Shown: positions 49,519 to 64,000 of the stretch, piece after piece
How the letters are laid out: every line of letters begins with the position of its first letter
Numbering within the stretch: the stretch's first letter is position 1
Notes under the pieces: generated by a model
The model's database searches: none
What the model saw: only the letters and a program-made list of their open reading frames with translations
Told to the model about the DNA's origin: nothing
NCBI GenBank assembly: GCA_040290255.1
Contig: PSMU01000002.1
Coordinates: 1-64,000 of the forward strand
Direction of reading: 5' to 3'
From: Nitrososphaerota archaeon
GTDB lineage: Archaea; Thermoproteota; Nitrososphaeria; PSMU01
DNA: 64,000 bases
Translations under genes and position numbers: made by a program

Positions 49519-49580
49519 TTCACCGCTGGCCCACACCTCTTCATTTAGCCCTTGTAGAAGCCCGGATACGTATCGGAGCT

Positions 49581-50756
49581 CTAGGTCCTGAGCGTAAGCG
49601 CCATGCCCAGGAACCACAGCAGGGCCGCGAGCAGCAGCGGCCCGCCCAGCCATGATAGCAGGGCCAGGCTATTTACATCATGGGCGAAGTAGCCGGCCAC
49701 TCTCCAGAGGGAGGCGATCGAAAAGAGGTAGACGGGGCCCCTGCTGAGGCCCCTATAGGGCACCCTTGCCGTGAGAAGAGGGGGAAGGAGTATGGGCACG
49801 TAGGCGATGATGGTCGTGCCCATGAACCCCAGGGCGAGTGAGTGTATGAAGGCATCCCTTAGGGCCAGGAGCCCCAGCGTGCCGTAGAGGAACCCCAGCG
49901 CCAGGCCCGCCAGCAGCCATGCGAGGGCCAGCGTAAAGGCGGTGGAGAAGTACTGGTACCTCACCCTATCCCTCTCCGCCATCCTGCCCTGCCTCTCATC
50001 CTTAAGCCTCCTGAAGCCCTGCACGGAATAAACCAGGCCGAGGCCCGAGCCGAGGAAGAGGGGGGAGGCATACCTCAGCGCCCTCGGCTCCAGGAGCGAA
50101 AGAAGCGTCAGGGCCAGGGCCGCGCCGTGAAGGCCAAAGCTCACCGCGGCCGCCCTTTTCCTTAGCACGGCCGCCCTGAACGGATCCCTGAAGTGTATCG
50201 TGCGGATGAAGATACCGTAGATCATGGTGGTGGGGAAGCCCAGGAGGGCCAGATAGAGCAGGCCATCGTTGCTAAAGGGGTCCTGTGAGGAGTAGGGCAG
50301 GAGGAGCAGGGCGGAGATGGGCAGGAGGAGCACGGCCAGGCTGATATAGGGCTCGGAGACGGCCAGCACGCCCGAGGGCTTGCCCAGCAGGGGCAGCAGG
50401 AGAAGGGAGAAGAGCAAGGCGCCCGCCGCAAGAAGCACGCCTCCCGCGGCTTCAGGCCCTGGCTCAAGCAGCCACAGGAGGTTTCCCACGAAGACAAGGC
50501 CCAAAGAGAGATAAGCCAGCTTCCGGCCTGCCAATCTCCTGTTCTTGAATCTCGGGACCAGGTTATAGGCCACGCCCATGATGAAGAGCGGAAGAGATCC
50601 GTAGAGCTGCACCCTTGCGTGCAGCAGCAGGAAGGGCGCGCCCGCGAAAAGGCCCGTGAGGGCGCCCAGCCACAGGATGCCCAGGAGAATTCCTATTAGG
50701 CCCAGGCAGAGCGCCAAGAGAGCGCCCAGCAGCGTCAGCCTGGCCCCCTCGAGCAC
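49581..50756 (-). CDS. NnrS-like polytopic membrane protein
   Basis: About 12 TM; HA..QLYG....FIMG.....VPRF and DAFIH.LALGF motifs. Confidence 0.6.
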   Translation of the reverse strand: MLEGARLTLLGALLALCLGLIGILLGILWLGALTGLFAGAPFLLLHARVQLYGSLPLFIMGVAYNLVPRFKNRRLAGRKLAYLSLGLVFVGNLLWLLEPGPEAAGGVLLAAGALLFSLLLLPLLGKPSGVLAVSEPYISLAVLLLPISALLLLPYSSQDPFSNDGLLYLALLGFPTTMIYGIFIRTIHFRDPFRAAVLRKRAAAVSFGLHGAALALTLLSLLEPRALRYASPLFLGSGLGLVYSVQGFRRLKDERQGRMAERDRVRYQYFSTAFTLALAWLLAGLALGFLYGTLGLLALRDAFIHSLALGFMGTTIIAYVPILLPPLLTARVPYRGLSRGPVYLFSIASLWRVAGYFAHDVNSLALLSWLGGPLLLAALLWFLGMALTLRT

Positions 50757-50918
50757 GGCGCCCGGAGGCTGAGCCGCTATATCAGGTTCACTACAAAGCC
50801 CGAAAGGGCCTAAGGCTCCCCGAGCATCGCCCCGATGGGCCCCGCGCCAGGCCTAACGCTCACCACAAGCCGCGTTTGTGTTACCTTAGGCCGTCAGGAA
50901 AAAAAGCAGAGACTTGCT

Positions 50919-51647
50919 CTAGGCCTTCGCGGCTCCTAGCTTGAGGGGCCCCAGCTGGAAGCGCGGCTGCTGCGCGGCTAGGAAGGTGCTCTCCACGCCT
51001 GTGAGGACGACCATGACCCTGACGTGGCCGTTCATGTTGGGCTCTGCTCTGGCGCCCCAGACGATCCTCACATGGGGCGGGAGCGACTTCATCACGAGCT
51101 CGCCCGCCTTGGTCACCTCCTCCAGCGTCACGTCCTCGCCGCCGGCGACATGCACCAGCACGCCCTTCGACTTCGTCACGTCCCTTATGTCAAGCAGCTG
51201 CCCCTTCAGCGCCGTGCGCACCGCGCTCTCCACCCTGTCCTGTCCATTCGCCCTCCCACGCCTATGGCTACAAGGCCCCTCTCCTGCATGATGGCCCTGA
51301 GGTCCGCGTACTCTATGTTGATGAGGCTGGCCGTGGCGATCGTCTCCGTTATGCCCTTGACGAACTGGCCAACGAGCTCGTTGGCCACGCCCAGGGCCTG
51401 CTGCAGGGGCAGGTCCCCGCCACCTTGGCCAGCTTGGTGTTGTCGATGGCCACCACGATGTCGCAGTAGCTGATGAGCTTCTCGAATCCCTTCTTCGCTA
51501 TGTCATACCTGTAGCGCTCGATGGGGAAGGGCAACGTGACCACGCCGACGGTGAGCGCGCCGGAGTTGTGCAGCTCCTTGGCAAGGACCAGCGAGCCTCC
51601 CCTGTGCCCGTGCCGCCTCCCAGGCCCGCGCAGATGAAGATGAAGTA
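50919..51647 (-). pseudogene. ftsZ: FtsZ homologue, 5'-truncated, with three frameshifts
   Basis: FIFICAGLGGGTGTG, VGVVTLPF..E, IDN.KL, AN, LINIEYADL, GVLVHVAGG.D.TL.E, IVWGAR, VMVVLTG spread over shifting frames. Confidence 0.88.
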
Positions 51648-51679
51648 GGGATTAATGGTTCATGGAGGGTTTCCTGCAG

Positions 51680-53404
51680 CTAGGCAAGGGCGATGCCCAG
51701 GAGCCTGGAGGCGATCAAGATGACCACGAGGCTCAGCGCGCTCAGCGCGAGTCCATGCTTGAAGCCGTCCGCAAGCGTGCCTCCCGACATCTTGCCGGCC
51801 ACGAGCCCCGCGAGCCAGCCGTCAAGGGTGGCCGCCGCCAGGAAGATGTCGACCGTTTGGGGCGAAACCTTGGGCAGCGAAGCGAGGGCGGCGAGCTCTC
51901 CGCTGACCGAATTGGCCAGCATATAGACCATCAGCAGGGCGGTGATGATCGTCATGAGGCCCGCCATGTACATGACGAAGAGGTAAGGCTTTAGCGAGGC
52001 CCTCTTATCCCGCTCCAGGTCGTTCATCTTCCTCGTGAAGTCGGCCATATCAGAAAAGCTCCTCACCGTGCCGCCGCCCACGTCGATCGTCTCCAGGATG
52101 AGCGTGCCCGCCGCCTTGACCATCCAGCTGTGCACGGCCGATACGAAGGTGTTCAGCACCTTGGAGAGCGGCAGCCCCCAGGAGATCTGCGCGCCCATCT
52201 TCTTCACATATTTGCTCAGCGCCCCATAGCCCCTCTTGGAGGCCCGCGCTATGCCCGCTTCGGGGGCGAGCCCCACCCTCCTCGCCTCGGCTAGGTCCTT
52301 TATAAAGTCGGGCAGCGCCTTCTCCATGCTCTCCCTCTCCCTCTCATAGCGCGCCGCGAGCAAGGCTGGGGGGAGCGAGAGCAGGATGAGCGCCAGGGCC
52401 ACCCTCAGGTACATGTACATGGGCATGGGCAGCAGCAGGAGGAGGATGCCAAGGGGCAGCGAGGCGATGAGGCCCCTGTAGGGCCTTGTGTCGACATAAG
52501 GCTGCTTGATATGTATTTGGTCCAGCAGCCAGATGAAGAGGGCCGAGAAGAGCGGTATGATGACGACGGAGAAGAGGAGAAGGCTCGAGATGCCCTGCGC
52601 GCTGTGCGTGAGCACGGCCTGCACCTCGAAGAGCACGAAGAGCGTCATGCCCAGCAGCGAGCTGAGCGATAGATAGGCCTCGGCGAAGATCCCCACGACC
52701 TCCGAGGCCCTCTTCACCTTGGACCCCCGGGCCTCAAAGATCTCCCTCTGCTTGTTCACCAAGTACGTCACATAGTCCCCGCCGGTGCGCAGCACGGTGG
52801 TGTAGCCATAGAGCACCTCCGAGAAGATCCGGCTCGGACTGTACCTCGCGGCCCTCTCCAGCGCGGTAAGCGGGTCGAGGCCCAAAACGTCGGTGTCCAC
52901 GAGGATCCTCTTTGCCTCCTTCGAGGCGGCCGGGAAGACCCTGTCCATCCTCGCTATTCGCCTCAGGGCAGCAATGGGCGAGACACCTCCCCCCGCGAGC
53001 ACCACCAAGAAGCCCATCACGTAGGCCAGCTCGTTCTCTATCGCGTAGGCCCGGGAGGCCTGGCTGAGCTTTGGAGCTAATAGCACCAACATGAAGCTGG
53101 GCGGCACGGCCACCAGCGAGAGCGCCAGCACCGGGAGGCCTAGGATGATGCCCAGCGCGGTCACCGCCGCGGCTATGGCGCCCACGAGAAGCGCTACGAA
53201 GAGCGCCAAGGACAGGAGCCCCTGCGGGGTAATCCTCAGGTTGGACTTCAGGATGTCCTCCTGCAGGTGGGGAAAGCTCCGGCTGAGCCTCAGCGCGGGC
53301 TTGGCTAAGAGCCTGTACGAGAGGGCCGAGAGCCTATCCAGCGCTCCCAGCGCCTGCGCTCCGGATTTTGTTCTCCTCTCCTGCCGCAGCTGCTGCAGGC
53401 TCAA
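51680..53404 (-). CDS. Type IV pilus platform protein (TadC/ArlJ-like, two T2SF domains)
   Basis: IENEL, G.D.LTALE, LPDFIKDLAE..RVG, YG.LS, GG...F. Confidence 0.9.
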   Translation of the reverse strand: MSLQQLRQERRTKSGAQALGALDRLSALSYRLLAKPALRLSRSFPHLQEDILKSNLRITPQGLLSLALFVALLVGAIAAAVTALGIILGLPVLALSLVAVPPSFMLVLLAPKLSQASRAYAIENELAYVMGFLVVLAGGGVSPIAALRRIARMDRVFPAASKEAKRILVDTDVLGLDPLTALERAARYSPSRIFSEVLYGYTTVLRTGGDYVTYLVNKQREIFEARGSKVKRASEVVGIFAEAYLSLSSLLGMTLFVLFEVQAVLTHSAQGISSLLLFSVVIIPLFSALFIWLLDQIHIKQPYVDTRPYRGLIASLPLGILLLLLPMPMYMYLRVALALILLSLPPALLAARYERERESMEKALPDFIKDLAEARRVGLAPEAGIARASKRGYGALSKYVKKMGAQISWGLPLSKVLNTFVSAVHSWMVKAAGTLILETIDVGGGTVRSFSDMADFTRKMNDLERDKRASLKPYLFVMYMAGLMTIITALLMVYMLANSVSGELAALASLPKVSPQTVDIFLAAATLDGWLAGLVAGKMSGGTLADGFKHGLALSALSLVVILIASRLLGIALA

Positions 53405-55086
53405 GCGACGGCCTCAACCCTCTCGAAGCTGCCCAGCATCAGCTCCCTCTGCGCCCTTTGGTAGACCTCCTGGGGCCTATCGATGTACTCGGCCAGCAGC
53501 GAGGAGAGGTCCCTGAAGTTCCTTATGCCCTTGTTCTGGATCCACCTCAGGATGAGCGCCCTCCTCTCTATCTCCTGCACGAGCTCCTCCACCTTAACGC
53601 CCAGCTGCGCGGCCAGCCTCGGCAGCTTCTTGCTCGTGGTGGCCAGGGGCATCTCCTCATACCTATCGCCCACGGGATCCCAGCGGAAGACTTGCGTGTA
53701 GCTGCCCACGCCCAGCACCTCATCCACCGAGAGCACCCTCCTCACCATCCTGAACCCGCCGGCCTGCTGGGGCAGGGAGACCCTGCTCACCGTAACGACC
53801 AGGTCCAAGAAGGGTATGAAGGAGGGGGGCACGTCCATGGGCTTCGAGGTGAGCCTCTGAATGGCCGAGGCAGCATCATCGGCGTGGAGCGAGCAGAGCC
53901 CGCCGTGGCCCGTGCTGATGGCCTGAAAGAGCACATAGGCCTCCTCGCCCCTCACCTCGCCCACCACGATGATATCCGGCCTCATCCTCATCGCGGCCTT
54001 CACGAGGTCGAAGAGCCCTATCTCCTTCGCCCCTTCCTCCATCTTGGCATAGCTCTCCCTGCTCACCAGCGCGGTCCAGTTGGGATGGGCTATGTTGATC
54101 TCCTGCACCTCCTCGATGGTCACTATCTTATTGGTGAGCTTGGTGAGCGTGAGAAGGGCGTTGAGCATCGTCGTCTTGCCCGCGCCCGTGGAGCCCACGA
54201 CGATGGCCGTGGCCCTGTTCTGCATCATCAGCCAGAGGTAGGCGGCGAGCTTGTGGCTTACTACGTTCATGTTGAGCATGTCGATGATCGTTATGGGGTC
54301 CTCCCTGAACTTCCTTATCGTGAACGTCGCGCCATAGGGTGATACCTCCCTCTTGAAGGTGGCTATGAGCCTATGCCTGCCGGGCAGCGTGCCCTGGACC
54401 ACGGGGAAGGCCGTGGAGACGTGCTTGCCGGCCAGGTGGCAGAGCCTCGAGATCATGTCATCCAGCTGCGCCTCGTCGGTGAAGGAGATGTTCGTCTCCA
54501 AGTTCTCGTATCTCCTATGGTAGACGAAGAGCGGCCTGCTCAGCGCGTTGAGCGAAATATCTTCGATGAAGGGGTCGTGCATGATGCCCTCGAGGATGCC
54601 GAAGCCCGCCAGGTCCCTCTTCAGATAATACAGGATCTTCGACCAGGAGATGCTGCTGGCCCTTATGCCGTACTTGTAGGCTATCCTGCGCACCTGCTCG
54701 GCAAGGTATTTGGCCGGCTCGAGGGAATCCTTGGGGACGCTGAGCTCGCTCTCCAGCATGCCCAGCAGCCTGGAGAAGATGGCCGCCTCCTGCTCGCTGA
54801 GCGCGACCTCATCGAGATAATACCTGCGTATGCCCGTGGCGGGATCCTCGACGATGGCCGCATATGCAAAGGGCGGCACGAGCGCATACCTCTCCACCAC
54901 CTTCCAGGAGGGGGGGATTGGCAGGCCGGTGAAGGGGCCCGTGGGCTTCGCCGATGTGCTAATGGCCGCCTTGCCTGCGCCCTTCTTGCCGAAGAGGCCG
55001 CCTAATGCTACCTTAAGCAGCGCCAGCTTTACGCCGTTAAGGCGCCAGGCCCCTGCGGATTCCAGGCCATCTTGCGGGTGCCTCAT
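53401..55086 (-). CDS. Type IV pilus assembly ATPase (TadA/ArlI/VirB11 family)
   Basis: DPFIEDIS, FTIRKF, GSTGAGKTT, TIEE..E, RMRPD..VVGEVRG.EA, TGHG...LHA. Confidence 0.95.
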   Translation of the reverse strand: MRHPQDGLESAGAWRLNGVKLALLKVALGGLFGKKGAGKAAISTSAKPTGPFTGLPIPPSWKVVERYALVPPFAYAAIVEDPATGIRRYYLDEVALSEQEAAIFSRLLGMLESELSVPKDSLEPAKYLAEQVRRIAYKYGIRASSISWSKILYYLKRDLAGFGILEGIMHDPFIEDISLNALSRPLFVYHRRYENLETNISFTDEAQLDDMISRLCHLAGKHVSTAFPVVQGTLPGRHRLIATFKREVSPYGATFTIRKFREDPITIIDMLNMNVVSHKLAAYLWLMMQNRATAIVVGSTGAGKTTMLNALLTLTKLTNKIVTIEEVQEINIAHPNWTALVSRESYAKMEEGAKEIGLFDLVKAAMRMRPDIIVVGEVRGEEAYVLFQAISTGHGGLCSLHADDAASAIQRLTSKPMDVPPSFIPFLDLVVTVSRVSLPQQAGGFRMVRRVLSVDEVLGVGSYTQVFRWDPVGDRYEEMPLATTSKKLPRLAAQLGVKVEELVQEIERRALILRWIQNKGIRNFRDLSSLLAEYIDRPQEVYQRAQRELMLGSFERVEAVA

Positions 55087-56159
55087 GGCCAGTAGAAGAG
55101 CGTTGAGAGGAACGGAATGCTTTGCCCGTAATTGCTCTGCGTGGGCGAGCAGGTGCCCGTGGAGCCCCTACAGCCGTGAGTGACTATAAAGGAGAAGGTT
55201 GTAGTGTTGGCGGTAATGCTGCCTAGAGATGTGGGTTGGGGGCTGGTTGTGCTTTCCCTGGTTGGGCTTTCCCAGACAAAGATGAGCCTCACCGGCTGGC
55301 CATAGTAGAGGGTCTGCGATGTGAAGGGATACAGGCGGCCGTTTGAGTCGTAGCTAGCTATATACCAGTAGGCGGTGGGCTGGTTGCCACAGCCGCTGAT
55401 GCAGGGCACAAATTCAACGAGGTAACTATACTTGTCAAGGGTTATAGGTTCCTGCTGCGGGTTTAAGTTAGTGACGTTAACGCCAAATGCTATAAAGGCC
55501 GGGCTTTTTAGGCTTTGCCAGAAGGTCCTTATCGAGAAGGCCGGTTTTCCCGCGCTCAGGCCTCCGCTGAGTTGCCAGCAGTCGCTGCCGCAGTTCGTCA
55601 CATTATACCATACGAACGAATTGAACTGGAGGTAAAGGTCGCCGAAGGCGCCTGAGGTAAGGGCCTGAAGCGCTAGGCTGGCCGGCGAGCCGGAGTAGGG
55701 ATAAGTGGCCACAAAGGCGGAACCCCTGGAGCTGAGCGCCCTTATTACGTACGTGCCCGAGCCCGGATAGCGCACCTTCGTATCGATCTTAGTGCTGTTA
55801 GCGCCGGCATTCACGAGAATGGGCAGGGGAGGGCTGGTGGCCGTGCCCGTGAGCACGCTAATGGCGCCGTTAGGAGCTATCAGGAAGACGGCCGTGATGT
55901 TGACGGCCACGCTGCCCATGTTAGAGATGACGAAGCTTATGTTGCCGTTGTCAAGGCCCGTGGTGAGCTGGGCCTGCTCCAGCAACCTATTCTGCTGGAA
56001 GTTATAGCGCTCGCTCAGCGCCTTCGTGTAGAGCTGGTTGTTCAGGTTCACGTAGAGGAAGTACGTGGTGCCCACGGTGAAGAGCATGGCGAAGAGGATT
56101 ATCGCGGCCATGATGCCGGCGATCGCCTTCCTGGCATGAGGAGCGATCACTGGCCTCAC
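55083..56159 (-). CDS. Minor pilin/adhesin with class III signal peptide
   Basis: RKA/IAGIMAAIILFAMLF; N.GS..V.I..V pilin motif; Cys pairs in an extended C-terminal domain. Confidence 0.8.
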   Translation of the reverse strand: MRPVIAPHARKAIAGIMAAIILFAMLFTVGTTYFLYVNLNNQLYTKALSERYNFQQNRLLEQAQLTTGLDNGNISFVISNMGSVAVNITAVFLIAPNGAISVLTGTATSPPLPILVNAGANSTKIDTKVRYPGSGTYVIRALSSRGSAFVATYPYSGSPASLALQALTSGAFGDLYLQFNSFVWYNVTNCGSDCWQLSGGLSAGKPAFSIRTFWQSLKSPAFIAFGVNVTNLNPQQEPITLDKYSYLVEFVPCISGCGNQPTAYWYIASYDSNGRLYPFTSQTLYYGQPVRLIFVWESPTRESTTSPQPTSLGSITANTTTFSFIVTHGCRGSTGTCSPTQSNYGQSIPFLSTLFYWP

Positions 56160-56746
56160 CTCGCCTGAGCATACTGCGCGGCATTACCGTACAGGGCCAT
56201 CACGCTAAAGGTGTAGGCCGAGCCGGTAGAGAACTTCAGCTGCGTGGGCGTGGAGCGTATAAGGCATACGGGCAGCGTCAGCGTGAGCTTGGCCAGGCTG
56301 CCCTTGGGAAAGGAGGCCTGTTGGGGGCTGGGGCTCAGCGGGTTGTAAAGCTGGGGCGATTCCAGGAGCGCGGCGCTTGAGTTGGTGCAGCTGGTGCCCC
56401 CGATGCTGATGGAGACGGTGGTAGCGTTGTAGAGCGCGAAGAGCGTTCCGTTGTAGATCTGGACCGATGTGGGCATGAGCGCTATGTTTCCCGTGTTGTA
56501 GAGCCAGAGCGTGACGCTCTTCGAGTCGGAGGAGTAGTTCACATAGGCGATGACGAACCTCTCCGCCAGGTAGTTCACGGTGCTCCCGAAGGCCGTGCCC
56601 AGGAGCTGCTCCGCCACGCCCGATTGGGCATTTACGTAGGAGAAGACGGCAAAGCCCGCGATGAGCGTTATCGATAGGGCGATGAGCGAGGCCATGACTT
56701 CCGAGATCCCGGGCCTATGGTGGGCTCGGTGCCTAGGGCGAGGCAC
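56156..56746 (-). CDS. Archaeal pilin (class III signal peptide)
   Basis: RPG/ISEVMASLIALSITLIAG; ERF.I, YNTG; GTG start about 25 nt below a TATTTAAG box. Confidence 0.85.
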   Translation of the reverse strand: MPRPRHRAHHRPGISEVMASLIALSITLIAGFAVFSYVNAQSGVAEQLLGTAFGSTVNYLAERFVIAYVNYSSDSKSVTLWLYNTGNIALMPTSVQIYNGTLFALYNATTVSISIGGTSCTNSSAALLESPQLYNPLSPSPQQASFPKGSLAKLTLTLPVCLIRSTPTQLKFSTGSAYTFSVMALYGNAAQYAQAR

Positions 56747-56874
56747 GGGCGCGAGGCCCTTTCCGCTTAAATATCGCTTATGAAGCGGGGGTATAGAGCT
56801 GCCGTTCATCTGCGCAGGCTTTTAACCGCGCCTTGGCAGGCCACGCCGTGGGCTCGCCTGGGGGCGAGAGGCAG

Positions 56875-57261
56875 GTGCCCAAGTTCCTGGCCAGCATAGA
56901 TTTCGGCTCGCTCAATCGCCGCCTCTGGCGCCTGCTGATGGTTTTTGTGCTGCTCAACTTCGCGGATGTTGCGATAACGCTCCTAGCGCTGCGCTCGGGC
57001 CACTTTGTGGAGCTCAACCCCCTCGCCTCCCAGCTCTTCAGCCGGCGCATGCCGGGCTTCCTGCTGGCGCTGCTGCTGAAGTACATGCCCTTGGCGCCGA
57101 TGCTCTACGCGTGCAGCCTGGATCCCGAGCACGATGGCCGACAACGGCAGGTGAGGGCGATTAAGCTGGGCACGTTCGCGGCCCTCTTCGCGGCGAACTC
57201 TTACTTGATGGGGCTGCTGGCCTTCAACGCATATAACCTGCTGAGCCTGCAGTTCTCATAA
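56875..57261 (+). CDS. DUF5658-like small membrane protein
   Basis: LNFAD..IT..AL..G...ELNPL, LLK. Confidence 0.7.
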   Translation: MPKFLASIDFGSLNRRLWRLLMVFVLLNFADVAITLLALRSGHFVELNPLASQLFSRRMPGFLLALLLKYMPLAPMLYACSLDPEHDGRQRQVRAIKLGTFAALFAANSYLMGLLAFNAYNLLSLQFS

Positions 57262-57272
57262 AAAAAGAAAGG
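57259..57272 (-). terminator. Oligo-T terminator after the major pilin gene
   Basis: TTTCTTTTTTT on the minus strand just downstream of the stop at 57278. Confidence 0.55.
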
Positions 57273-57277
57273 TCGGC

Positions 57278-57739
57278 TTATCGGAAGGTGCCTGAGAAGG
57301 GCACCTGAGCGCCGTTGCTCAAGGATACGATGCCGCTGAACTGGGAGCCGGGCGTTGGTGGAGGGTTGAGGGAACCGCTCAGCTGGATATAGAGCTGCCC
57401 TCCTGCCGGCACCGTGCAGGTCGCTGGATCAGCATCAGCAGTAACGCCGCCCAGCGTCACAGCTATGACTGATACGTTAGATGTTCCGCTGTTCCTTAGC
57501 AGGAGATATGAGCCACTGGGGGCAGTAGCACACGTCGCATCCAACGAGCGACCAGAGCTGAAGTCGGCCGCGCGAAGCACTGCCTGCACCACGGTGACCT
57601 GGGGCGTGCTGGTGAAGCCGCTGAAGAGCCCGAAGACGAAGCCCGCTATCGCGACGGCAGCTATCAGGGTGATGGCGATGAGGATGACCGTGGCGATGAC
57701 CGGCGATACGGCCCTTCTCTTGCTCATCCTTGGCCGCAT
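57278..57739 (-). CDS. Probable major archaeal pilin
   Basis: KRRA/VSPVIATVILIAITLIAAVAIAGFVFG canonical class III signal; own promoter and terminator. Confidence 0.92.
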   Translation of the reverse strand: MRPRMSKRRAVSPVIATVILIAITLIAAVAIAGFVFGLFSGFTSTPQVTVVQAVLRAADFSSGRSLDATCATAPSGSYLLLRNSGTSNVSVIAVTLGGVTADADPATCTVPAGGQLYIQLSGSLNPPPTPGSQFSGIVSLSNGAQVPFSGTFR

Positions 57740-57773
57740 TGCGCGCTTGGCCGGCGCATTTTATTTAATCGTT

Positions 57774-57820
57774 ATGAACCACTGCTCCACTTCAGAAATA
57801 TAAATGGATTCATAGTCCAT
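57774..57820. promoter_or_regulatory. Two ATRRA-N7-TYCAY palindromes in the pilin divergent promoter
   Basis: ATGAA-CCACTGC-TCCAC 57774-57790 and ATGGA-TTCATAG-TCCAT 57804-57820, flanked by TATA boxes. Confidence 0.65.
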
Positions 57821-57853
57821 AAAGTCTATTAAAATAGTTCGGAGCCCGAGCTC

Positions 57854-58351
57854 ATGGCCGAGGAGAAGGAGGGAGCGCTGTCAGGCCTTATAAGCGAGCT
57901 GGAGGAGCTGCAGAGCGAGTTCTCCCAGCTCTCCGAGCTTGCGGAGCTCGAGAGGAGCTATGCGCTGAGGGTGGTGGAGGCCCTTAAGGCGATACAGACC
58001 GAGGTGGACGTAGCTATAAGGCTCGATCCTGAGGCGCTGCGGGGGTATAAGGGGTCCGTGCGTGAAGTGTATCTGCTGCCCGAGGCCGTGCTCATGCTGG
58101 CCTATGAAGGAGGAGGAAGCGAGAGCAGGCCCCTCTCCAAGTTCCCCAGCGAGGTGGTGCTCTCCGTGCTTCAGGCAGCGGCGCCCGAGCTCAGGAAGCA
58201 GATCTCACAGAGGAGGAGGCAGGTGGGGGCCCGCGTGCACCTGTTCGAGAGGATCCTGAAGGGCCTGAAGAGGGCCGAGGCGCTCCTGGCCCATGAGGAG
58301 GCCGAGGAGGAGGGGACCGATGCCGTGCGCGCCGCGCTGGAGAGCGCGTAG
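57854..58351 (+). CDS. Hypothetical coiled-coil protein
   Basis: 165 aa; helical ends around a short beta-rich centre. Confidence 0.7.
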   Translation: MAEEKEGALSGLISELEELQSEFSQLSELAELERSYALRVVEALKAIQTEVDVAIRLDPEALRGYKGSVREVYLLPEAVLMLAYEGGGSESRPLSKFPSEVVLSVLQAAAPELRKQISQRRRQVGARVHLFERILKGLKRAEALLAHEEAEEEGTDAVRAALESA

Positions 58352-58353
58352 CC

Positions 58354-58812
58354 ATGCAGCAGGAGCAGGCGGGCAGCGGGCTGCTGAAGTTCTATTCTAG
58401 GGAGGCGCTCAAGGCCTATCTGAGAAAGCTGATGGAGAGCTACAGGGCGGGCATAGAGGCCTATGCGGAGCAGCTGGGCCCCCTCTTCAGGGATGAGGCC
58501 CAGGCCAAGCAGGCGCGCGCGGCGTCAAGGGGATGGATGAGGCTGGGCCCCCTTCTCTACAACGCCAGCGAGACCGATAGGGCCGTTGCCGAGGTGATGC
58601 TGCAGCTGATGGAGGAGCTCAAGGCTAAGCTGGCCAGGACCGAGGAGGCGCTCAGGGCCCTGGAGGACCCCGCGAACACCGCCCTTCCGGAGAGGGGGCA
58701 CTTCCTGCTCTGTATGAGACAGGGCGTGCCCGAGAGGCTCATCCTGGATATGCGGGAGAGGCAGGTGGAGCCCTTCGCCTTTGCCGCGAGCTTTAGGCTC
58801 GTCGAGGCCTAG
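58354..58812 (+). CDS. Hypothetical coiled-coil protein
   Basis: 152 aa; starts 2 bp after the upstream gene. Confidence 0.7.
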   Translation: MQQEQAGSGLLKFYSREALKAYLRKLMESYRAGIEAYAEQLGPLFRDEAQAKQARAASRGWMRLGPLLYNASETDRAVAEVMLQLMEELKAKLARTEEALRALEDPANTALPERGHFLLCMRQGVPERLILDMRERQVEPFAFAASFRLVEA

Positions 58813-60494
58813 AAGAGCGAGGAGAGCTGGAAGTAGGACTTCACGAAGTACTTCATCAGCTGGTAGGGCTCCTGTAGGGGACAGTTAATCAAGAAGTAGT
58901 TCTCAAGCCTCCTGCTCGCGATGCCGATGCCCAGCAGCAGCAGGCCCATCTTGCCCGCCTTCTTGAGCGAGGCCTCGAGCCTCTGCTCTATGCCCTCATA
59001 GCCCACCGCATACCCATCGGAGGCTACGACCAAGATGCGCGCTTCAGCCGGCCTTGCGGCCAGGGCCCTTGAGCAGACCTCTATGGCATCGGGCAGGAGC
59101 GTGGAGCTGCCCTGCGTAAGCCCGCCTATCCTGGCCCTGCTCTCCAGGTCATATTCTTCATCGAAGTCCTTCAGCACGAGCAGGCTGCTGTTGAAGGCAT
59201 AGAGCGCCCAGCGGTCGCTCGAGGGCATCACATCCTGGGCCACCTCCGCCAGGCAGGTGGCGATGCCCCTCACCTCCTGCGCCAAAGGGGCGAGGCTCTT
59301 GCTCGCGTCCAGCAGGATGGCCCAGGCCTCGTCCTTCCTCAGGGGCTCCTGCCACGTAAAGAATTCCTTCTTGGGCTTTTGCGAGGCCAGGGCCTGCACG
59401 GCCCTCTGCAGGTCCACATGCCCCTCCTCCACCACCTCCCTCTCCTCGAGCGCGCTCCTGATCTGCTTCAGCTGCTCCCTGATCGTCCTTATGGGCCCCG
59501 CCAGCGAGGACCTTGTCCGCAAATACATGGCATAATCGCTCCTGGGGAAGCTGAGCCCCTGCAGCCTCGTGGGCAGCAGAAGCGGGCTATACCGGCGCCT
59601 TATGGCCTCCCTCCTCTCCTGCCTAGCTTGCAGCGTCAAGAAGAACTCCCGGGCCTCCAGCTCCTGCCTCGTGGCCTCCTCCTGGCCTGGAGGGATGAGG
59701 CGTAGGGCGTCGTAGGCGGAGAGCAGCAGGGCATGCCCGTTCTTGTCCTTCTCGACCAGCTTATCCTCGAAGAGCGTGCAGGGCCCATGCTCCTCCGTAT
59801 GAGGAAGAAAGGGCACCTCCCTGAGCCTTCCCCTCTTGCCCAGCGCATTATACACGAGCTGCGCCGCCTGCTGAAGGCATGAGGGCACATCCTCATCCTC
59901 CAGGCTCAGCTGTACAAGCCTCCTCACCGCTTCGGCCAGCCCCCGCACCTCCCCGTCCGGCTTAGCCCCCTGGGAGGGCGAAAGCACGCCCCAGAGTTCG
60001 AGAAGGAGAGAGAGCGCAAAGGCATGGGGCTCATCGAGCTCCTGCAGGTCCCTGGCCCTCAGGCCCGCTATGTAATTGGCGTAGGCGATGTCCTCCAGGA
60101 TGCCTCCCCATCTCGTCGTCCCCAGCAGCGTGACCCTGTAATCCTCGACGAGCGAGGCGCAGAAGGTGGCCGCGTTGGGCTCCTTTCCCCTGGCCCACCT
60201 TACATAGAGCGAGAAGTCGGAGAAGGCGGCGTGCAGCGAGAGGTGATAAAGCGAGGCCTTGAAGAGGCGCCAGATCTGGGGCCAGGAGGCCTCATCGGCG
60301 TCAAAATACAGCCCGTGCAGCGCGTACAGGTCCGAGCCCTCGTCCTTCGGAAGGGGCAGGAGCAGCACGAAGCCCCTCTTATCCTGGCCCAGCCTCGGAT
60401 ATGTGAGCTGCTCATCCAGCACGACGCGCAGGGCCTGATGGTCCTTGCCCGCGATCGCGCTGGCGGTGGACCAGCAGAACTCCAGAGGGTTCAA
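58809..60494 (-). CDS. VWA (MIDAS) domain protein, CbbO/NorD-like
   Basis: ASLVEDYRV in the N-terminal region; ILLDASKS, GSST, VASDG, GIGI. Confidence 0.88.
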   Translation of the reverse strand: MNPLEFCWSTASAIAGKDHQALRVVLDEQLTYPRLGQDKRGFVLLLPLPKDEGSDLYALHGLYFDADEASWPQIWRLFKASLYHLSLHAAFSDFSLYVRWARGKEPNAATFCASLVEDYRVTLLGTTRWGGILEDIAYANYIAGLRARDLQELDEPHAFALSLLLELWGVLSPSQGAKPDGEVRGLAEAVRRLVQLSLEDEDVPSCLQQAAQLVYNALGKRGRLREVPFLPHTEEHGPCTLFEDKLVEKDKNGHALLLSAYDALRLIPPGQEEATRQELEAREFFLTLQARQERREAIRRRYSPLLLPTRLQGLSFPRSDYAMYLRTRSSLAGPIRTIREQLKQIRSALEEREVVEEGHVDLQRAVQALASQKPKKEFFTWQEPLRKDEAWAILLDASKSLAPLAQEVRGIATCLAEVAQDVMPSSDRWALYAFNSSLLVLKDFDEEYDLESRARIGGLTQGSSTLLPDAIEVCSRALAARPAEARILVVASDGYAVGYEGIEQRLEASLKKAGKMGLLLLGIGIASRRLENYFLINCPLQEPYQLMKYFVKSYFQLSSLF

Positions 60495-61516
60495 GCCTTA
60501 CGGACCCTTTTCTCCTCGCCGAAGGCCATCTGCACGAGCGTGCGCACCACGGCCTGCACATCGGGGTCATCGGATATGAGCGAGATGATCGTCTCCTCCG
60601 CCGCCTGCAAGGGGCTCAACCCATCGTAGACCAACGTGGCCCAGTTTATGAGGTCGGCCACGCTGGGCGCATAGGGCAGCTCGCCCGCCTTGTACCTCCT
60701 CCTGATCTCAGCCGCGACCCTCACCATCCTCTCCGAGACCTCCCCGGGCACCCTTCCCCTCGAGCTGACGAGCTCTATCTCCTTCTGCGAAATCCTGGAG
60801 CCGGAGCTCAGGTAATCGAAGTCTATCCAGACGCTCATCCTCCTCCTGAAGGCGGCGTTGAGCGGCTTGGTGCCCACGAACTCAAGGCTATAGGGGTTCA
60901 TGCTGATGATCATGTAGCCATAGGGGTGCCTGGGTATGATCTCGTTATCCTTCTCGGTCAGCACCAAGTGCCCCCTGGTGTCGAGCACGGGGTTAAGGCG
61001 GGTCGCTATGTCCTGCTTCATCATATTCGCCTCATCCAAGTAAAGTATCCCGCCATGCCTGCACCAGGAGACGATCTGGCCATCGACCCAGTTCTCCTTG
61101 CCCAGGCCCAGGAATCTGCCGAAGAGGTCATAGACTGAGGTCTGAAGGCTGCAGTTGATCTCCCAAAGGGGGAGGCCAGCGAGCTCGGCCACCAGATAGA
61201 CCACATGCGTCTTGCCCGTGCCGCTGGGGCCCACGAGCGCGCACTGCTTGAAGTAGTAGAGCGCCCTCATCACCCTCTCCACATACCTCTCGCCCTCATC
61301 CACGAACTCGGGCACGTTCTTGGGGATCAGGCTCGCGAACTTCTCGGGCACCGTATAGCCCTCGGAGAGGTCGTACTTCGTTACTCCGTACTTGCTGAGC
61401 AGCTGCAGCTGCCTGCTCTTCGCAAGCACGGAGAAGCGAACGGAAAGGCTGGCGCTCGGCCCCTTCAGCTGAACGGACTTCACGGTTGGGGTCTCTCGGC
61501 CGGCCGCCACGAGCAA
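60491..61516 (-). CDS. MoxR-type AAA+ ATPase, CbbQ/NirQ/NorQ-like
   Basis: GPSGTGKT, WVDG, LYLDEAN, SMNP, KPLN.AFRRR. Confidence 0.92.
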   Translation of the reverse strand: MLVAAGRETPTVKSVQLKGPSASLSVRFSVLAKSRQLQLLSKYGVTKYDLSEGYTVPEKFASLIPKNVPEFVDEGERYVERVMRALYYFKQCALVGPSGTGKTHVVYLVAELAGLPLWEINCSLQTSVYDLFGRFLGLGKENWVDGQIVSWCRHGGILYLDEANMMKQDIATRLNPVLDTRGHLVLTEKDNEIIPRHPYGYMIISMNPYSLEFVGTKPLNAAFRRRMSVWIDFDYLSSGSRISQKEIELVSSRGRVPGEVSERMVRVAAEIRRRYKAGELPYAPSVADLINWATLVYDGLSPLQAAEETIISLISDDPDVQAVVRTLVQMAFGEEKRVRKA

Positions 61517-61543
61517 TTGGCCATGTCTTATTAGTTAATGGTT

Positions 61544-61560
61544 ATGAATTCCTGCTCCAT
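61544..61560. promoter_or_regulatory. ATRRA-N7-TYCAY palindrome in the MoxR divergent promoter
   Basis: ATGAA-TTCCTGC-TCCAT; 61531-61559 closely matches 57761-57789. Confidence 0.65.
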
Positions 61561-61990
61561 GGGAGGGCAAGAGGGGAGCTTTTTTAAGGCGAAGCTGGAG
61601 AGTCGCGGCGTGCCCGAGGTATCCGTCAGCCTAAAGACCCTCGAGGCGGCGGTGCTCGGAAGCGAGGCGCCCCCGCCCTCGGTGAGCTATCGCGTCAACG
61701 TGAAGATGAGCGAGGAGGAGCGGAACCCCGGCTACCTTAGGGTGAGGTTCAGCTTTGAGCTGGAAGCGGAGCCCCCCATCGCGAAGCTGCAGGTCTCGGG
61801 CACGGCGCAGGTGACGGGCAAGGAGGAGGAGCTGCTGCCGCTCCTATCACAGAGCGCGAAGGAGGGCGCGCCTCCTCTCTTCATGCTCATCTACCAGAAG
61901 GTCTACCCCGTGATGTACCTGCTCGCGGGCGCGCTGAAGATCCCTTATCCCGCGCCCGGCCTCCTGAAGATAGGGCAGGGCGGCGCCTAG
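61559..61990 (+). CDS. Hypothetical protein, SecB-like fold predicted (paralogue A)
   Basis: Four alternating beta strands, then helix IYQKVYPVMYLLAGALKIPYP. Confidence 0.7.
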   Translation: MGGQEGSFFKAKLESRGVPEVSVSLKTLEAAVLGSEAPPPSVSYRVNVKMSEEERNPGYLRVRFSFELEAEPPIAKLQVSGTAQVTGKEEELLPLLSQSAKEGAPPLFMLIYQKVYPVMYLLAGALKIPYPAPGLLKIGQGGA

Positions 61991-61991
61991 C

Positions 61992-62423
61992 TTACCTTAC
62001 CAGGTGCACGTCCTTGACCAGCCAGGCGCTGGGGGCGCTTAGCCCCATCGTGTCTAGGAGCAGGTACAGCAGCGGATAGATGCTCCTGTAGATCTCCAGC
62101 GCGATCTTCCCCAGCTCCTCCTCGCCCAGCTCCTCCAGCGAGAGGACCTCCGCGCCATCGCAGCCGAGGAAGGCATCGCCCTCCAGCTCCGCCCTTTGCA
62201 TCGTGGGCATCGTTTCAATTACGAGCCTGAACTGCAGCTGCGCTCCCCCCTTCAGCCTCCTCACCTCCTTCAGCTCGGCCTGCAGGTCAAAGTTAAGGCC
62301 CTGCTGCTCGCTTCTCATGGCCAGCCTGGCTACCTTGAGCCTCCTTATGCTGGCCTCTATGCTCAGCTGAAGCTGCTGGCCCCGCTTCACGGCCTCGAGC
62401 TGGGGAGCAACAGGAGGCGCCAT
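61992..62423 (-). CDS. Hypothetical protein, SecB-like fold predicted (paralogue B)
   Basis: Same pattern, helix IYRSIYPLLYLLLDTMGLSAP. Confidence 0.7.
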   Translation of the reverse strand: MAPPVAPQLEAVKRGQQLQLSIEASIRRLKVARLAMRSEQQGLNFDLQAELKEVRRLKGGAQLQFRLVIETMPTMQRAELEGDAFLGCDGAEVLSLEELGEEELGKIALEIYRSIYPLLYLLLDTMGLSAPSAWLVKDVHLVR

Positions 62424-62425
62424 GG

Positions 62426-62749
62426 CTATCCACCCATGAGCGAGGTCCTTCGCCTCCAGTAAGGAGGCGCCCTGGAGGCGGCCCGGGGCCTGTAGCCCAT
62501 GGGCAGCCTGGCCAGGCCCCTATGGGAGCTGAGGGGCATCAGGGCCCTCCCGAGCATCCTGCTGATGGGCCTCCTCATCCACACCACGAGCCAGGCATCG
62601 AAAAGGGCGTAGAGGATCCCGAACTCCACGCCCAGCTGGTGAAGGCCTATGAAGTAAGCCGCGAGTATGCTTCCTATGTCCACTAAGGAGGCGACCATGT
62701 TTTCATACACCTCTTGATCCACGCGCAGCGTGAGGGAGCCTCGTTTCAA
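62426..62749 (-). CDS. Small membrane protein
   Basis: Two TM and a basic tail; TATATAAG just upstream. Confidence 0.55.
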   Translation of the reverse strand: MKRGSLTLRVDQEVYENMVASLVDIGSILAAYFIGLHQLGVEFGILYALFDAWLVVWMRRPISRMLGRALMPLSSHRGLARLPMGYRPRAASRAPPYWRRRTSLMGG

Positions 62750-62803
62750 GGCCTTATATAGTGCGTAGGTGCCGGGCTATAGACCAGGGATCCATGTTCA
62801 GGG

Positions 62804-63133
62804 CTAAAAGTAGGACCTCTTAGCATAGCCCTTGAGCAGCGCGTGGCCTGGCTGCTCAAACACGGGTTCCTGGGGCTCAGGGGCCAGGGCGCTCTCCACT
62901 TCATCGAAGAGGCGCAGCAGGGCATGGCCCTTGCTCGTGAGCGTGAGATATGTGCCCGAGGCCGTGCGCTCCAGCGCAACTAAGCCCTTATGCTGCAACA
63001 GCAGCAGCGCCTCCTTGAAGACGTTCCAGGAGAGGTTCGCCTTGAACATGACGCGGGTGCGCCTTGCCCTCCCCTCCTCCGCGATGGCCCTGAGTATGTC
63101 CACGAGCACCTCGAGCTTTGAGCGCCTGATCAC
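62804..63133 (-). CDS. Winged-helix transcriptional regulator (archaeal HTH_45-like)
   Basis: RRSKLEVLVDIL.AI....RTRVMFKANLSW......L..L..KGLV...Y.LT.KG; GTG start inferred. Confidence 0.88.
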   Translation of the reverse strand: MIRRSKLEVLVDILRAIAEEGRARRTRVMFKANLSWNVFKEALLLLQHKGLVALERTASGTYLTLTSKGHALLRLFDEVESALAPEPQEPVFEQPGHALLKGYAKRSYF

Positions 63134-63307
63134 TTCTAACGTATAATTAGCGCTATGGGATATAAGGCGGGCAGGAAAAAATGGCGGGCGCATCGATCGA
63201 TCCCTTAGGCGTTCACCAGGACAAGCCTCGCGAGGTTTAGATTGCCACCAGCTTCCTGCAAACGCGTTTGCAAGGCGACCGCCTTGCTCCATGAAAAGCC
63301 TTCTGCG

Positions 63308-64000
63308 CTAGGGGACCGCCGCGGCCTCCGCCTCAGCCCAGAACCTTATCGCGCTCAGCACCAAAGGCAGCCTCCTGCTCCCCACCAGCTCCAGCAGCAG
63401 CCTAGCTACGGCGTCGGGCGTGGCCAGCCTGGAGGCCTCCTGCTTGGCCCGAGGCGAAAGCTCATACCTCCTCTCTACCTTCCTGGCGAAGCCCTCCATC
63501 TCCAGCGCTCTTAGCGCCCTCTTCACCGCCTTCGGCTCGGCGCGGAAGCCCAACTGCCTGAGCGCCCTTCCGTTCACGCTGTAGCCGAGAAGGAGCAGCA
63601 CGCCCAGCCATGCCGCCAGCTCCTGGGAGCTCCTTATCTCATGTGAGGGGCGGGGAGCCCGCCTCATCTCCGGGGTCCTGGACACACTCAGCCTCCTCAC
63701 CACGGCCTCCACATCGCTCCTGGCCAGCCTCTCCTTTCGTTTCATCCTCTCGAGCAGCATGGATAAGGCCTTTTCCTGCTTGGGCCCCGGCAGCTTGTAG
63801 AGCGGGAAGGCCTTGCGCCAGCTGAGCCCCAGCCTCTCCAGCTCCTCCCTGACGTTGGGCGCGAGCCTGAGCAGCAGCCTCTTATGGGTCACCGTGGAGA
63901 GGGGGATGCCCAGCTCCCTGGCTATCCTCCTCAGCGTCCAGCCCCTCTCCCAGAGCCTCTGGACGAGGCTGGCCTCCCTGAGCGCCTGGCTCAGCGACGC
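63308..64000 (-). CDS. ParB/Spo0J-like HTH protein (5' end outside the window)
   Basis: Frame open to the window edge: REASLVQRLWERGWTLRRIARELGIPLSTVTHKRLLLRLAPNVREEL...LSWRKAFPL, plus a C-terminal wHTH-like segment. Confidence 0.7.
   Translation of the reverse strand, partial: ASLSQALREASLVQRLWERGWTLRRIARELGIPLSTVTHKRLLLRLAPNVREELERLGLSWRKAFPLYKLPGPKQEKALSMLLERMKRKERLARSDVEAVVRRLSVSRTPEMRRAPRPSHEIRSSQELAAWLGVLLLLGYSVNGRALRQLGFRAEPKAVKRALRALEMEGFARKVERRYELSPRAKQEASRLATPDAVARLLLELVGSRRLPLVLSAIRFWAEAEAAAVP

Follow-up and report, generated by a model that had tools for sequence, protein, structure and literature searches.

In the NorQ-NorD, CbbQ-CbbO, CobS-CobT and midasin systems, a ring of AAA+ proteins (ATPases associated with diverse cellular activities) pulls on a client that is bound at a metal ion-dependent adhesion site (MIDAS). 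A comparable pair, a MoxR-class AAA+ ATPase and a partner with a von Willebrand factor A (VWA) domain, is encoded next to a type IV pilus (T4P) operon of a Nitrososphaerota archaeon, in the stretch of DNA considered here. This stretch, the window, comprises the first 64 kb of the 358-kb contig PSMU01000002.1; the genome (assembly GCA_040290255.1) amounts to 1.21 Mb in 9 contigs, is 91% complete and has a G+C content of about 63%. Together with a SecB-fold protein and two small proteins, termed cc165 and cc152, the pair (CbbQ and VWA) constitutes, as judged by comparison of related loci, a conserved five-gene module that is usually but not always found beside the pilus operon. On balance, the module is taken here for an AAA+/MIDAS chaperone system dedicated to the biogenesis or remodelling of the pilus. 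An earlier note, made from the letters of the window alone, had placed a candidate pilus-control system at 50919-64000. Its gene list proved mostly real, apart from ftsZ as a gene and a promoter palindrome, and the locus extends further left than it had assumed, to a Big_1 surface protein at 47098-49653.

A link between such a pair and archaeal pili has already been published. According to the main text of Makarova, Koonin and Albers (2016; PMC4858521), a vWA protein (arCOG02900) and a GvpN-like ATPase (arCOG00441) are strongly linked to the T4P loci of thaumarchaeal subclade 4A, which also include an S-layer or adhesin gene. The same text states that ArnA and ArnB are never encoded in T4P loci and that FtsZ-family GTPase genes occur in the clade 1 T4P loci of Thermococci. 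A word search of it returned neither "SecB" nor "chaperone"; its supplements (Fig. S6, Table S4) may list extra families. The main text of Abby et al. (2020), which distinguishes four pilus types of ammonia-oxidising archaea (AOA) with functions still to be elucidated, is without vWA or MoxR. A search of the literature, supplements being outside its scope, for SecB-like, MoxR, vWA, NorQ and NorD in connection with archaea and pili found no description of the five-gene module.

The locus in the window resembles those of subclade 4A in its lineage, in the combination of a pilus ATPase, TadC and pilins with a MoxR-class ATPase and a VWA protein, and in its S-layer- or adhesin-like protein. Unlike the 4A loci as described in the main text of 2016, it encodes a SecB-fold protein and a pair of small proteins. 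A putative assignment to subclade 4A follows from the 2016 statement about thaumarchaeal loci with the vWA pair. To call the system undescribed is an overstatement, as the MoxR/VWA–pilus link is in print; the SecB-fold and small partners are not in that main text. The extended module, with its SecB-fold member and its spread across classes, appears new.

The module is encoded by the following genes, one of them with a paralogue:

58809..60494, minus strand: VWA/MIDAS adaptor of NorD/CobT-like architecture, 561 aa (MIDAS residues; predicted fold)
60491..61516, minus strand: MoxR-class AAA+ ATPase of the CbbQ/NorQ/GvpN type, 341 aa (Pfam AAA_5 8.5e-21, CbbQ_C 3.1e-16)
61538..61990, plus strand: SecB-fold protein A, open reading frame (ORF) of 150 aa (AlphaFold2 and Foldseek)
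61992..62423, minus strand: SecB-fold protein B, 143 aa, paralogue of A (22% identical to A; family match E 3.4e-39)
57854..58351, plus strand: small module protein cc165, 165 aa, without a named family (homologues in related loci by hidden Markov model, HMM)
58354..58812, plus strand: small module protein cc152, 152 aa, without a named family, always adjoining cc165 (HMM homologues in related loci)

Families were assigned by a Pfam scan of 18 ORFs, namely the 17 genes between 47098 and 64000 and the ORF 56833-57261, and the proteins of the locus were additionally scanned with NCBIfam, PADLOC and Pfam at a relaxed threshold (E<=5). The AAA+ protein scores 74.8 bits with AAA_5 (cut-off 22) and 59.8 bits with CbbQ_C (cut-off 20.6). 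A sequence search against the PDB returned midasin AAA domains, CbbQ (6l1q; 6.1e-24), NorQ (9qhd and 9qh4; 8.5e-22) and CobS. The translation of the gene at 60491-61516 contains GPSGTGKT and ILYLDEA as its Walker A and Walker B motifs. The stop codon of this gene and the TTG start of the VWA gene overlap, the two genes sharing 4 nt, and the translationally coupled MoxR/VWA pair of the earlier note is thus confirmed as an AAA_5 and CbbQ_C gene overlapping a MIDAS-bearing VWA gene.

The VWA protein matched no Pfam family at E<=0.01, and with NCBIfam it reached only 15.6 bits to a VWA model. In an alignment with nine homologues, the residues D396, S398, S400 and D493 of the MIDAS motif (DxSxS...D) are invariant in all 10 sequences; the S/T position of the MIDAS was read by eye. 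The AlphaFold2 (AF2) model of the adaptor has a predicted local distance difference test (pLDDT) score of 81.6 and a predicted template modelling (pTM) score of 0.82. With Foldseek, the NorD VWA chains 9qhe_G and 9qh8_G come first (E 4-5e-5), followed by the MIDAS of MDN1. A VIA search with the same model gave NorD 9qh8_G at Z 14.5 (root-mean-square deviation 5.3, 225 aligned), MDN1 at Z 14.3 and Rea1 at Z 13.4, and placed ArnB (8s05_B) at rank 32 with Z 10.4. The analogy to ArnB of the Sulfolobus archaellum, which had been drawn earlier, is therefore weaker than that to NorD and midasin. A profile of the VWA family matched NorD in the PDB at 3.8e-8, over the VWA part only. The N-terminal 300 residues form a small sheet and a helical bundle in the model. 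In Atlas structure searches, this N-terminal domain aligns with CobT clusters (template modelling, TM, score 0.53-0.61) and with Bathyarchaeota VWA clusters, which is a lead only, the fold search being swamped by the VWA domain. Four residues of the helical part, H84, H88, E117 and D118, are nearly invariant and are absent from the solved NorD chains that matched; they may possibly form a metal or catalytic site.

The pair shares with NorQ-NorD, CbbQ-CbbO, CobS-CobT and midasin/Rea1 an AAA_5-type ATPase with a CbbQ_C tail, a partner with a C-terminal MIDAS VWA domain, and adjacent, overlapping genes. In contrast to the first three of these systems, no nitric oxide reductase (NOR), Rubisco or CobN gene is present in the locus, and the neighbourhood is a pilus operon. 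The adaptor further differs from NorD in its N-terminal 300 residues, which have no sequence match, and the pair is accompanied by three further conserved partners.

The first of these partners, SecB-fold protein A, was modelled by AF2 with 11 homologues at a pLDDT of 75, with a core near 90, as four strands and two helices. Its top five Foldseek matches are the SecB-like Rv1957 and SecB of H. influenzae (E 1.4e-5 to 8e-4, TM 0.44-0.59), the best of them at E 1.4e-5 and TM 0.54-0.58. Neither A nor B matches an NCBIfam model, nor any Pfam family at E<=5 beyond chance level. The two paralogous SecB-like proteins proposed earlier were thus upheld in both paralogy and fold, though they are unseen by sequence models. 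The true start of A is probably the GTG at 61610, where homologues start; the HMM match begins at 61616. Residue E59 is invariant in the alignment of the family, and its role as a candidate ligand of the MIDAS is a speculation. A predicted complex of the VWA protein with the SecB-fold protein (residues 27-146) scored 0.04 against a mark of 0.32, which says nothing either way. Like SecB of E. coli and H. influenzae and Rv1957 of the M. tuberculosis toxin–antitoxin–chaperone (TAC) system, protein A is small, is modelled with a four-stranded sheet and helices (Foldseek E 1.4e-5 to 1.5e-3, TM 0.48-0.58), and is encoded beside its presumed partner. Unlike them, this predicted SecB-fold protein is archaeal, has no Pfam or NCBIfam match, and is linked to an AAA+/VWA pair instead of SecA or a toxin–antitoxin system. 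Lower-scoring matches to the SecB-fold profile (E 1e-8 to 1e-14), in family f19 (19 of its 25 genomes) and in several further families, come without a VWA partner; they look like a wider family of small archaeal SecB-fold-like proteins in other contexts.

The remaining partners, cc165 and cc152, are the two coiled-coil proteins of the earlier note and match neither Pfam nor NCBIfam. Their alignments do not obviously represent pure coiled coils, and the Atlas neighbours of cc152 are unnamed archaeal clusters, again only a lead.

The pilus genes of the locus are:

47098..49653, minus strand: surface protein of 851 aa with Big_1/Invasin_D3 repeats and a C-terminal hydrophobic anchor (Pfam Big_1 4.3e-17, Invasin_D3 2.8e-13)
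51680..53404, minus strand: T4P platform protein, TadC/FlaJ-like, T2SSF, 574 aa (Pfam T2SSF 1.1e-20 in two stretches; kept in relatives)
53401..55086, minus strand: T4P assembly ATPase of the T2SSE/VirB11 family, 561 aa (Pfam T2SSE 7.4e-39)
55083..56159, minus strand: pilin-like protein, 358 aa (N-terminus ...RKAIAGIMAAIILFAMLF, class III-type as read by eye; homologue at the same position in loci L024 and L055)
56156..56809, minus strand: pilin-like protein, 217 aa (N-terminus ...RPGISEVMASLIALSITLIAGF; homologues in L016, L019, L024 and L055)
56833..57261, plus strand: DUF5658 membrane protein, 142 aa (Pfam DUF5658 5.2e-9)
57278..57739, minus strand: archaeal type IV pilin, 153 aa (Pfam Pilin_N 1.4e-10)

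By their coordinates, the genes for the 217-aa and 358-aa pilin-like proteins, the ATPase and the platform protein form a minus-strand run with a 4-nt overlap at each junction. The assembly ATPase and the platform protein, both named in the earlier note, are borne out by Pfam. Of its three pilins with class III signals, one is supported by Pilin_N; the other two were recognised by their N-terminal motif only and have no Pfam match even at E<=5. This motif, [KR]-[AG]-[IL]-[SA] followed by a hydrophobic helix, together with the conserved position, suggests somewhat less firmly that the 358-aa and 217-aa proteins are pilin-like. Against NCBIfam, the ATPase reaches 341 bits with FlaI (cut-off 550) and 260 bits with BasE (cut-off 1000), so by these models it would belong to neither an archaellum nor a bindosome. 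The 851-aa protein is a candidate adhesin or S-layer-like partner of the pilus.

Conservation of the locus was followed in a sample of 151 genomes of the class, in a sample of 301 genomes of the phylum, and in 46 loci: five of family f4, 32 from a scan of species-representative genomes with the VWA alignment, and nine from other classes. The named relatives among the VWA-bearing loci are Thaumarchaeota/Nitrososphaerota, Nitrosarchaeum and Nitrosopumilus metagenome-assembled genomes. Twenty-one long loci were searched with profile HMMs of our own alignments; among them, two genomes each appear as two loci, and one contig is split into two loci. The relatives' loci were mapped only with the proteins of the present locus and ten proteins of genome G125.

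Within the class sample, the SecB-fold protein and the VWA protein each occur in 25 of 151 genomes, and these are the same 25 genomes (one of them, G135, unpublished). In 22 of the 24 other genomes, the two genes lie within about 2.2 kb of each other. CbbQ stands directly upstream of VWA in 28 of the 32 loci of the VWA scan, the other four beginning at the VWA gene, and both the cc165/cc152 pair and the SecB-fold gene are present in 17 of the 21 long loci. In the phylum sample, VWA was found in 28 of 301 genomes and the SecB-fold protein in 75, in two score tiers, with eleven genomes outside the class strong for both. All nine loci fetched from other classes carry CbbQ, VWA, cc165 and cc152 within a few kilobases, and seven have the SecB-fold gene adjacent. 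Within genera, the distribution of the module is patchy.

The pilus genes accompany the module in many of these loci. In four of the five family-f4 loci, the order is the small pair, pilin-like genes, the SecB-fold gene divergent from CbbQ-VWA, pilin, ATPase, platform, and the Big-repeat protein, whose homologue follows the platform gene; homologues of this surface protein are present in 11 of the 32 VWA-scan loci. In closer relatives, with VWA proteins 42-48% identical, the order is winged helix-turn-helix (wHTH), double-HTH, SecB-fold, CbbQ, VWA, two small genes, DUF5658, pilin, pilin-like genes, ATPase and platform, for which L024 is complete. The DUF5658 gene is kept beside a pilin gene in L021, L023, L024, L026, L027, L028 and L055 of this group. 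In the 24 other genomes, the distance from VWA to the orthologous ATPase is at most 3.5 kb in 15 and 11-17 kb in three; the ATPase is absent from one, and is on another contig or affected by contig edges in five. The ATPase is present in 10 of the 32 VWA-scan loci, and 16 of the 22 loci without one have less than 4 kb beyond the VWA gene. Pilus genes lie within the fetched stretch in five of the nine loci of other classes. The gene-neighbourhood check proposed in the earlier note thus found module and pilus often co-located.

The fifth f4 locus, in the complete genome G031 (L018/L040), stands apart. Its CbbQ is split into ORFs of 137 and 167 aa. The genome has no match to the ATPase, the cc pair is not nearby, and the SecB-fold gene lies at a distance of 42 kb. 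The frames of VWA and one pilin remain open. This is a natural co-loss, in which the module decays together with the loss of the ATPase.

Both divergent intergenic regions of the locus contain a shared promoter motif, and a regulator gene lies near the module:

57765..57789, plus strand: shared promoter motif, copy 1, between the pilin gene and the cc165 gene (pattern search)
61535..61559, plus strand: shared promoter motif, copy 2, between the CbbQ and SecB-fold genes (pattern search)
62804..63292, minus strand: wHTH regulator, HTH_45 (Pfam HTH_45 3.7e-16)

The motif is a direct sequence of 25 nt with two matches in the window and none in 100 shuffles; alignment extends the likeness to about 55 nt. 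A shared palindrome had been claimed for these promoters, of which the sharing at two promoters stands and the palindrome does not. The copies flank divergent promoters, with the pilin gene and CbbQ-VWA on the minus side and the small-protein operon and the SecB-fold gene on the plus side. By our own reading, the minus strand has at each copy an AT-rich, TATA-like stretch that lies 23-30 nt ahead of the pilin and CbbQ start codons. The 9-nt core of the motif occurs six times in the 1.2-Mb genome, three of them in this locus; the third is a remnant at 51652, at the ftsZ junction. The two promoters of G048 share a different AT-rich stretch, as read by eye only.

The wHTH regulator, as it had been called before, was confirmed by HTH_45, scores 51.2 bits with the NCBIfam model Sso10a_fam (cut-off 60), and is kept in the neighbourhood of closer relatives, with homologues near the module in L020, L021, L024, L026 and L057. 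The genome also encodes a 369-aa double-HTH protein at C4:67911-69020 (L014:7911-9020, minus strand), with a weak AsnC-type match. Over its full length, it is 23% identical (E 8e-34) to the product of a gene beside the SecB-fold gene in the same five relatives' loci. Here, a ParB-like trio and a thiolase gene stand between the double-HTH gene and the wHTH gene.

The remaining features of the locus and its surroundings are:

50919..51650, minus strand: ftsZ pseudogene remnant (Pfam FtsZ_C 3.1e-21; three-frame translation; tblastn of relatives' FtsZ)
62426..62749, minus strand: small membrane protein, 107 aa (tblastn homologues beside FtsZ)
63308..64000, minus strand: ParB-HTH ORF, a neighbour outside the conserved module (Pfam HTH_ParB 27.4 bits)
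beyond the right edge of the window: weak ParB_N gene, 402-aa protein without known identity, then thiolase and housekeeping genes
left of 50919: NnrS-like membrane gene, weak and below cut-off

The ftsZ gene, which the earlier note had counted as part of the system, is a pseudogene. It consists of four pieces in three frames, with changes near 51590-51600, at 51414 and at 51245-51262, and its only open part is an FtsZ_C ORF of 104 aa (50919-51233). The first recognisable residues, those of the GGGTGTG loop region, start a few bases past the stop of the platform gene, so the gene lacks about 88 residues of the N-terminus as well as a start codon and any promoter. The remnant is the sole tubulin/FtsZ match in the genome. 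The stretch was compared with Logan contigs of four runs from two studies. A contig of study P1, which may be the window's own source and hence is not independent, spans it whole, with a single gap at 50899, outside the coding remnant. Contig X3 of the second study (depth 7.8) shares the truncation and all but one of the three frame changes, with eight substitutions over 1.25 kb; the breaks are therefore not an artefact of a single assembly. In X3, one extra C after 51414 brings the second and third ftsZ pieces into one frame. X3 is a strain at an earlier stage of decay, and the decay of ftsZ is still proceeding.

In the class sample, FtsZ_C occurs in three of 151 genomes (the present one, G048 and G125), in all of them on the contig of the pilus genes. 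It abuts the platform gene here; in the other two, roughly 4.4 to 6 kb separate it from the ATPase or platform gene. In G048, ftsZ lies between the DUF5658 and pilin genes, and one frame change divides it into a 217-aa N-terminal and a 91-aa C-terminal ORF. The N-terminal part is FtsZ1-like, matching FtsZ1 of M. jannaschii at E 2.7e-59 as against 4e-12 for 4b46, which was deposited as FtsZ and which we take to be a CetZ-type structure. In G125, ftsZ is unbroken over 227 residues from the contig start, 4.4 kb from the platform gene. Between the two genes, G125 carries a 394-aa transposase-like ORF (L056:3686-4870) with a Zn-ribbon C-terminus, IS200/IS605 OrfB-like by eye. No FtsZ_C match was found in 22 of the 25 module-bearing genomes of the class, nor in any of four closer relatives, and the FtsZ_C ORF has no homologue in the 37 loci of family f4 and the VWA scan. 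Among 80 metagenome FtsZ loci kept from 188 relatives, many of them short, five have a pilus-locus gene in their flanks, one of these the surface protein only.

The ftsZ NEVERTHELESS–pilus link can be read as in part historical, an ancestral synteny in part of the lineage from which the gene is being lost; here, ftsZ is a decaying relic without a role in the locus. The present locus resembles the clade 1 T4P loci of Thermococci in having a tubulin-family gene beside pilus genes. It differs from them in that this gene is FtsZ1-like, as judged from the N-terminal part of the relative's protein, and is broken here and in G048, and in that the pilus belongs to another clade. Since ftsZ is cut exactly at the stop of the platform gene, insertion of the pilus locus into ftsZ as a mobile element was considered. 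It was rejected: the genome holds no second half of ftsZ, and relatives carry ftsZ elsewhere in the same locus. The break is read as local rearrangement and decay. Homologues of the 107-aa membrane gene stand directly beside ftsZ in eight of the 80 metagenome loci and near the 3' end of the platform gene in G048 (L055). It is a real gene whose usual partner appears to be ftsZ rather than the pilus, and here it lies 11 kb from the remnant.

The ParB-like gene of the earlier note exists as an HTH_ParB ORF and does not belong to the locus. ParB_N was matched in the next gene (C4:64003-65157) at 22.3 bits, below its cut-off of 26.3. The ParB-HTH domain precedes the first ATG, GTG or TTG of its own ORF, and the frame opens just past a stop near the end of the weak ParB_N gene; a non-canonical start, a frameshifted fusion or a pseudogene are possible explanations. 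The ParB-HTH, ParB_N, 402-aa and NnrS-like genes have homologues in none of the 46 related pilus and module loci, and the ParB-like genes were not detected on three stretches of G048 and G125. On this comparison, they are unrelated neighbours.

Some further observations concern the pilus ATPase, CbbQ and cell division. A second T2SSE-type ATPase, 38% identical to the first, is encoded at C2:142111-143166 of the same genome. A search of the genome for a prepilin peptidase gave a Peptidase_A24 match of 22.1 bits at C2:148403-148660, under the cut-off of 26.5. The second ATPase gene sits 5 kb from this weak match and may mark a second type IV filament locus with a prepilin peptidase. In G048 (L055:13266-16226), and also in G054, G001, G020, G033 and G040, the ATPase match comes in two pieces about 1.4 kb apart or falls inside an open frame of more than 1000 aa, which suggests that the ATPase of several relatives may carry an intein or other insert. 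The CbbQ-type gene of L024 (8412-10004), and also those of L021 and L026, encodes 521-530 aa, about 180 of which form an in-frame insert with a match to Pfam Intein_splicing (1.1e-13). A MIT-domain match in the window (4345-4536, minus strand; 37.5 bits, over cut-off) within a 431-aa Vps4/CdvC-like frame would fit a division system of the ESCRT type. Pfam Snf7 found no match in the genome, with a model that barely detects even the Sulfolobus control.

From gene content, folds, synteny, co-occurrence and the shared motif, we infer the physical contacts, the client and the direction of effect as follows. The AAA+ ring would use ATP to pull on a client held at the MIDAS site of the adaptor, by analogy with NorQ-NorD, CbbQ-CbbO, CobS-CobT and midasin. 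The SecB-fold protein, cc165 and cc152 would hold or deliver this client, for which a part of the pilus machine or a pilin not yet assembled is the most likely candidate. The module would thereby assist the assembly, maturation or remodelling of the pilus. A more specific form of this proposal is clearly unlikely: that the five proteins act as one machine, of a CbbQ-type ring, a MIDAS adaptor, a SecB-fold holdase and two small adaptors, which extracts, holds or recycles pilins or resets the platform. Several observations weigh against a dedication to the pilus. In the loci compared, the module is conserved more tightly with itself than with the pilus. Six ATPase-free loci have more sequence beyond VWA (L020, L021, L026, L027, L036 and L040); five of them have no ATPase within 10 kb and L027 none in its available 5 kb, the orthologous gene being about 20-23 kb away on the same contig in L021 and L026 and on another contig for L020. 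No pilus genes were found in the stretches fetched for four of the nine loci of other classes. Orthologues of the ATPase also occur without the module, for example in G007, G129 and G119, so the module is not required for this type of pilus. The core of the promoter motif was not found at the equivalent promoters of relatives. The solved relatives of the AAA+/VWA pair serve metalloenzymes, not filaments. Related genomes, finally, are not independent samples.

Because the module keeps together more tightly with itself and has loci without pilus genes, another client stays in play. The module would then be an autonomous AAA+/MIDAS chaperone, for instance one for metal-cofactor insertion or maturation in the manner of NorQD or CobST that acts on another enzyme or envelope complex, and that merely shares an island with the pilus. 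This is rather unlikely, though to be taken seriously: NorQ/NorD and CobS/CobT are the nearest solved relatives, the N-terminal domain of the adaptor is CobT-like in the Atlas models mentioned above, and four loci of other classes as well as L020 and L036 lack nearby pilus genes. Homologues of norQ and norD have also been read as accessory genes of NO reductase in an AOA genome paper (PMC4084955). On the other side, the 18 ORFs scanned include no NorB, Rubisco or CobN family; the sole candidate client is the weak NnrS-like gene, for which the related loci compared offered no homologue. The recurring neighbours of the module are pilins, ATPase, platform and adhesin, and in G031 it decays along with the loss of the ATPase. 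The reading of Makarova et al. (2016), in which the VWA protein would regulate pilus expression or activity by signalling, as ArnB does, with the AAA+ protein as an alternative input, is improbable here. In its favour, the main text of PMC4858521 places the thaumarchaeal VWA protein in the arCOG of ArnB and calls the pair a potential regulator; the VWA domain of ArnB does align, the wHTH and double-HTH genes are nearby, and ArnA/ArnB likewise tie a cytoplasmic VWA protein to a type IV filament. Unlike ArnA/ArnB, however, the locus has no FHA partner, kinase or phosphatase family among the 18 ORFs scanned, the MIDAS domains of NorD and midasin fit better than that of ArnB, and a CbbQ_C-type ATPase with overlapping genes is typical of remodelling machines.

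It is scarcely probable that the module is a conflict or defence system of the MoxR-vWA type and protects or alters the pilus, for instance in the face of viruses with pili as their receptors. Bacteria are known to have MoxR-vWA ternary conflict systems (PMC7159879), viral clusters are among the Atlas neighbours of the adaptor's N-terminal domain (a lead only), and the patchy distribution within genera would agree with it. PADLOC, however, gave only weak generic matches (BrxF P-loop 2e-5, ZorA helical stretch 1.5e-5), no effector domain was recognised in the five module proteins, and the genes keep their order from class to class and lack the variable cassettes that defence islands usually have. 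The full model of the earlier note, one regulon tying the pilus to the chaperone module and to FtsZ cytoskeletal and ParB positioning elements, can be given almost no credence, and for this genome it is largely refuted. The pilus contigs of all three FtsZ_C genomes, the FtsZ-family genes in the T4P loci of Thermococci (main text of PMC4858521) and the five metagenome loci with pilus-locus genes nearby speak for it. Against it, the ftsZ of the window has neither a start nor a continuous frame and is short of about 88 residues, and it is truncated in the contig of the second study too; that of G048 is also frameshifted. FtsZ_C is missing in 22 of the 25 module genomes and in all four closer relatives, 75 of the 80 FtsZ loci show no pilus genes, and the ParB-like genes recur in none of the 46 related loci. 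What remains of the non-chance neighbourhood seen earlier is the pilus genes, the MoxR/VWA pair, the SecB-like and two small proteins and, in closer relatives, the wHTH regulator; FtsZ and ParB drop out of it, and with them the cytoskeletal or positioning element.

MoxR/VWA machines are widespread, but clients are known for few of them, and the function of type IV pili in archaea other than Sulfolobus and the haloarchaea is unexplored. What had been a single line of genomic comment in 2016 is now a definite set of proteins, in a module that spans several classes of one archaeal phylum, and the link to FtsZ and ParB is corrected as a tempting misreading. Some Nitrosopumilaceae carry the module, and relatives with and without it, together with one decaying locus, provide ready comparisons. 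If the five proteins do act as one machine on pilins or the platform, lineages that have no PilT-type retraction ATPase would gain an ATP-driven means of taking down or re-tuning their pili. The machine would also represent the first SecB-fold chaperone with a defined archaeal role and the first filament client of a MoxR/MIDAS machine.

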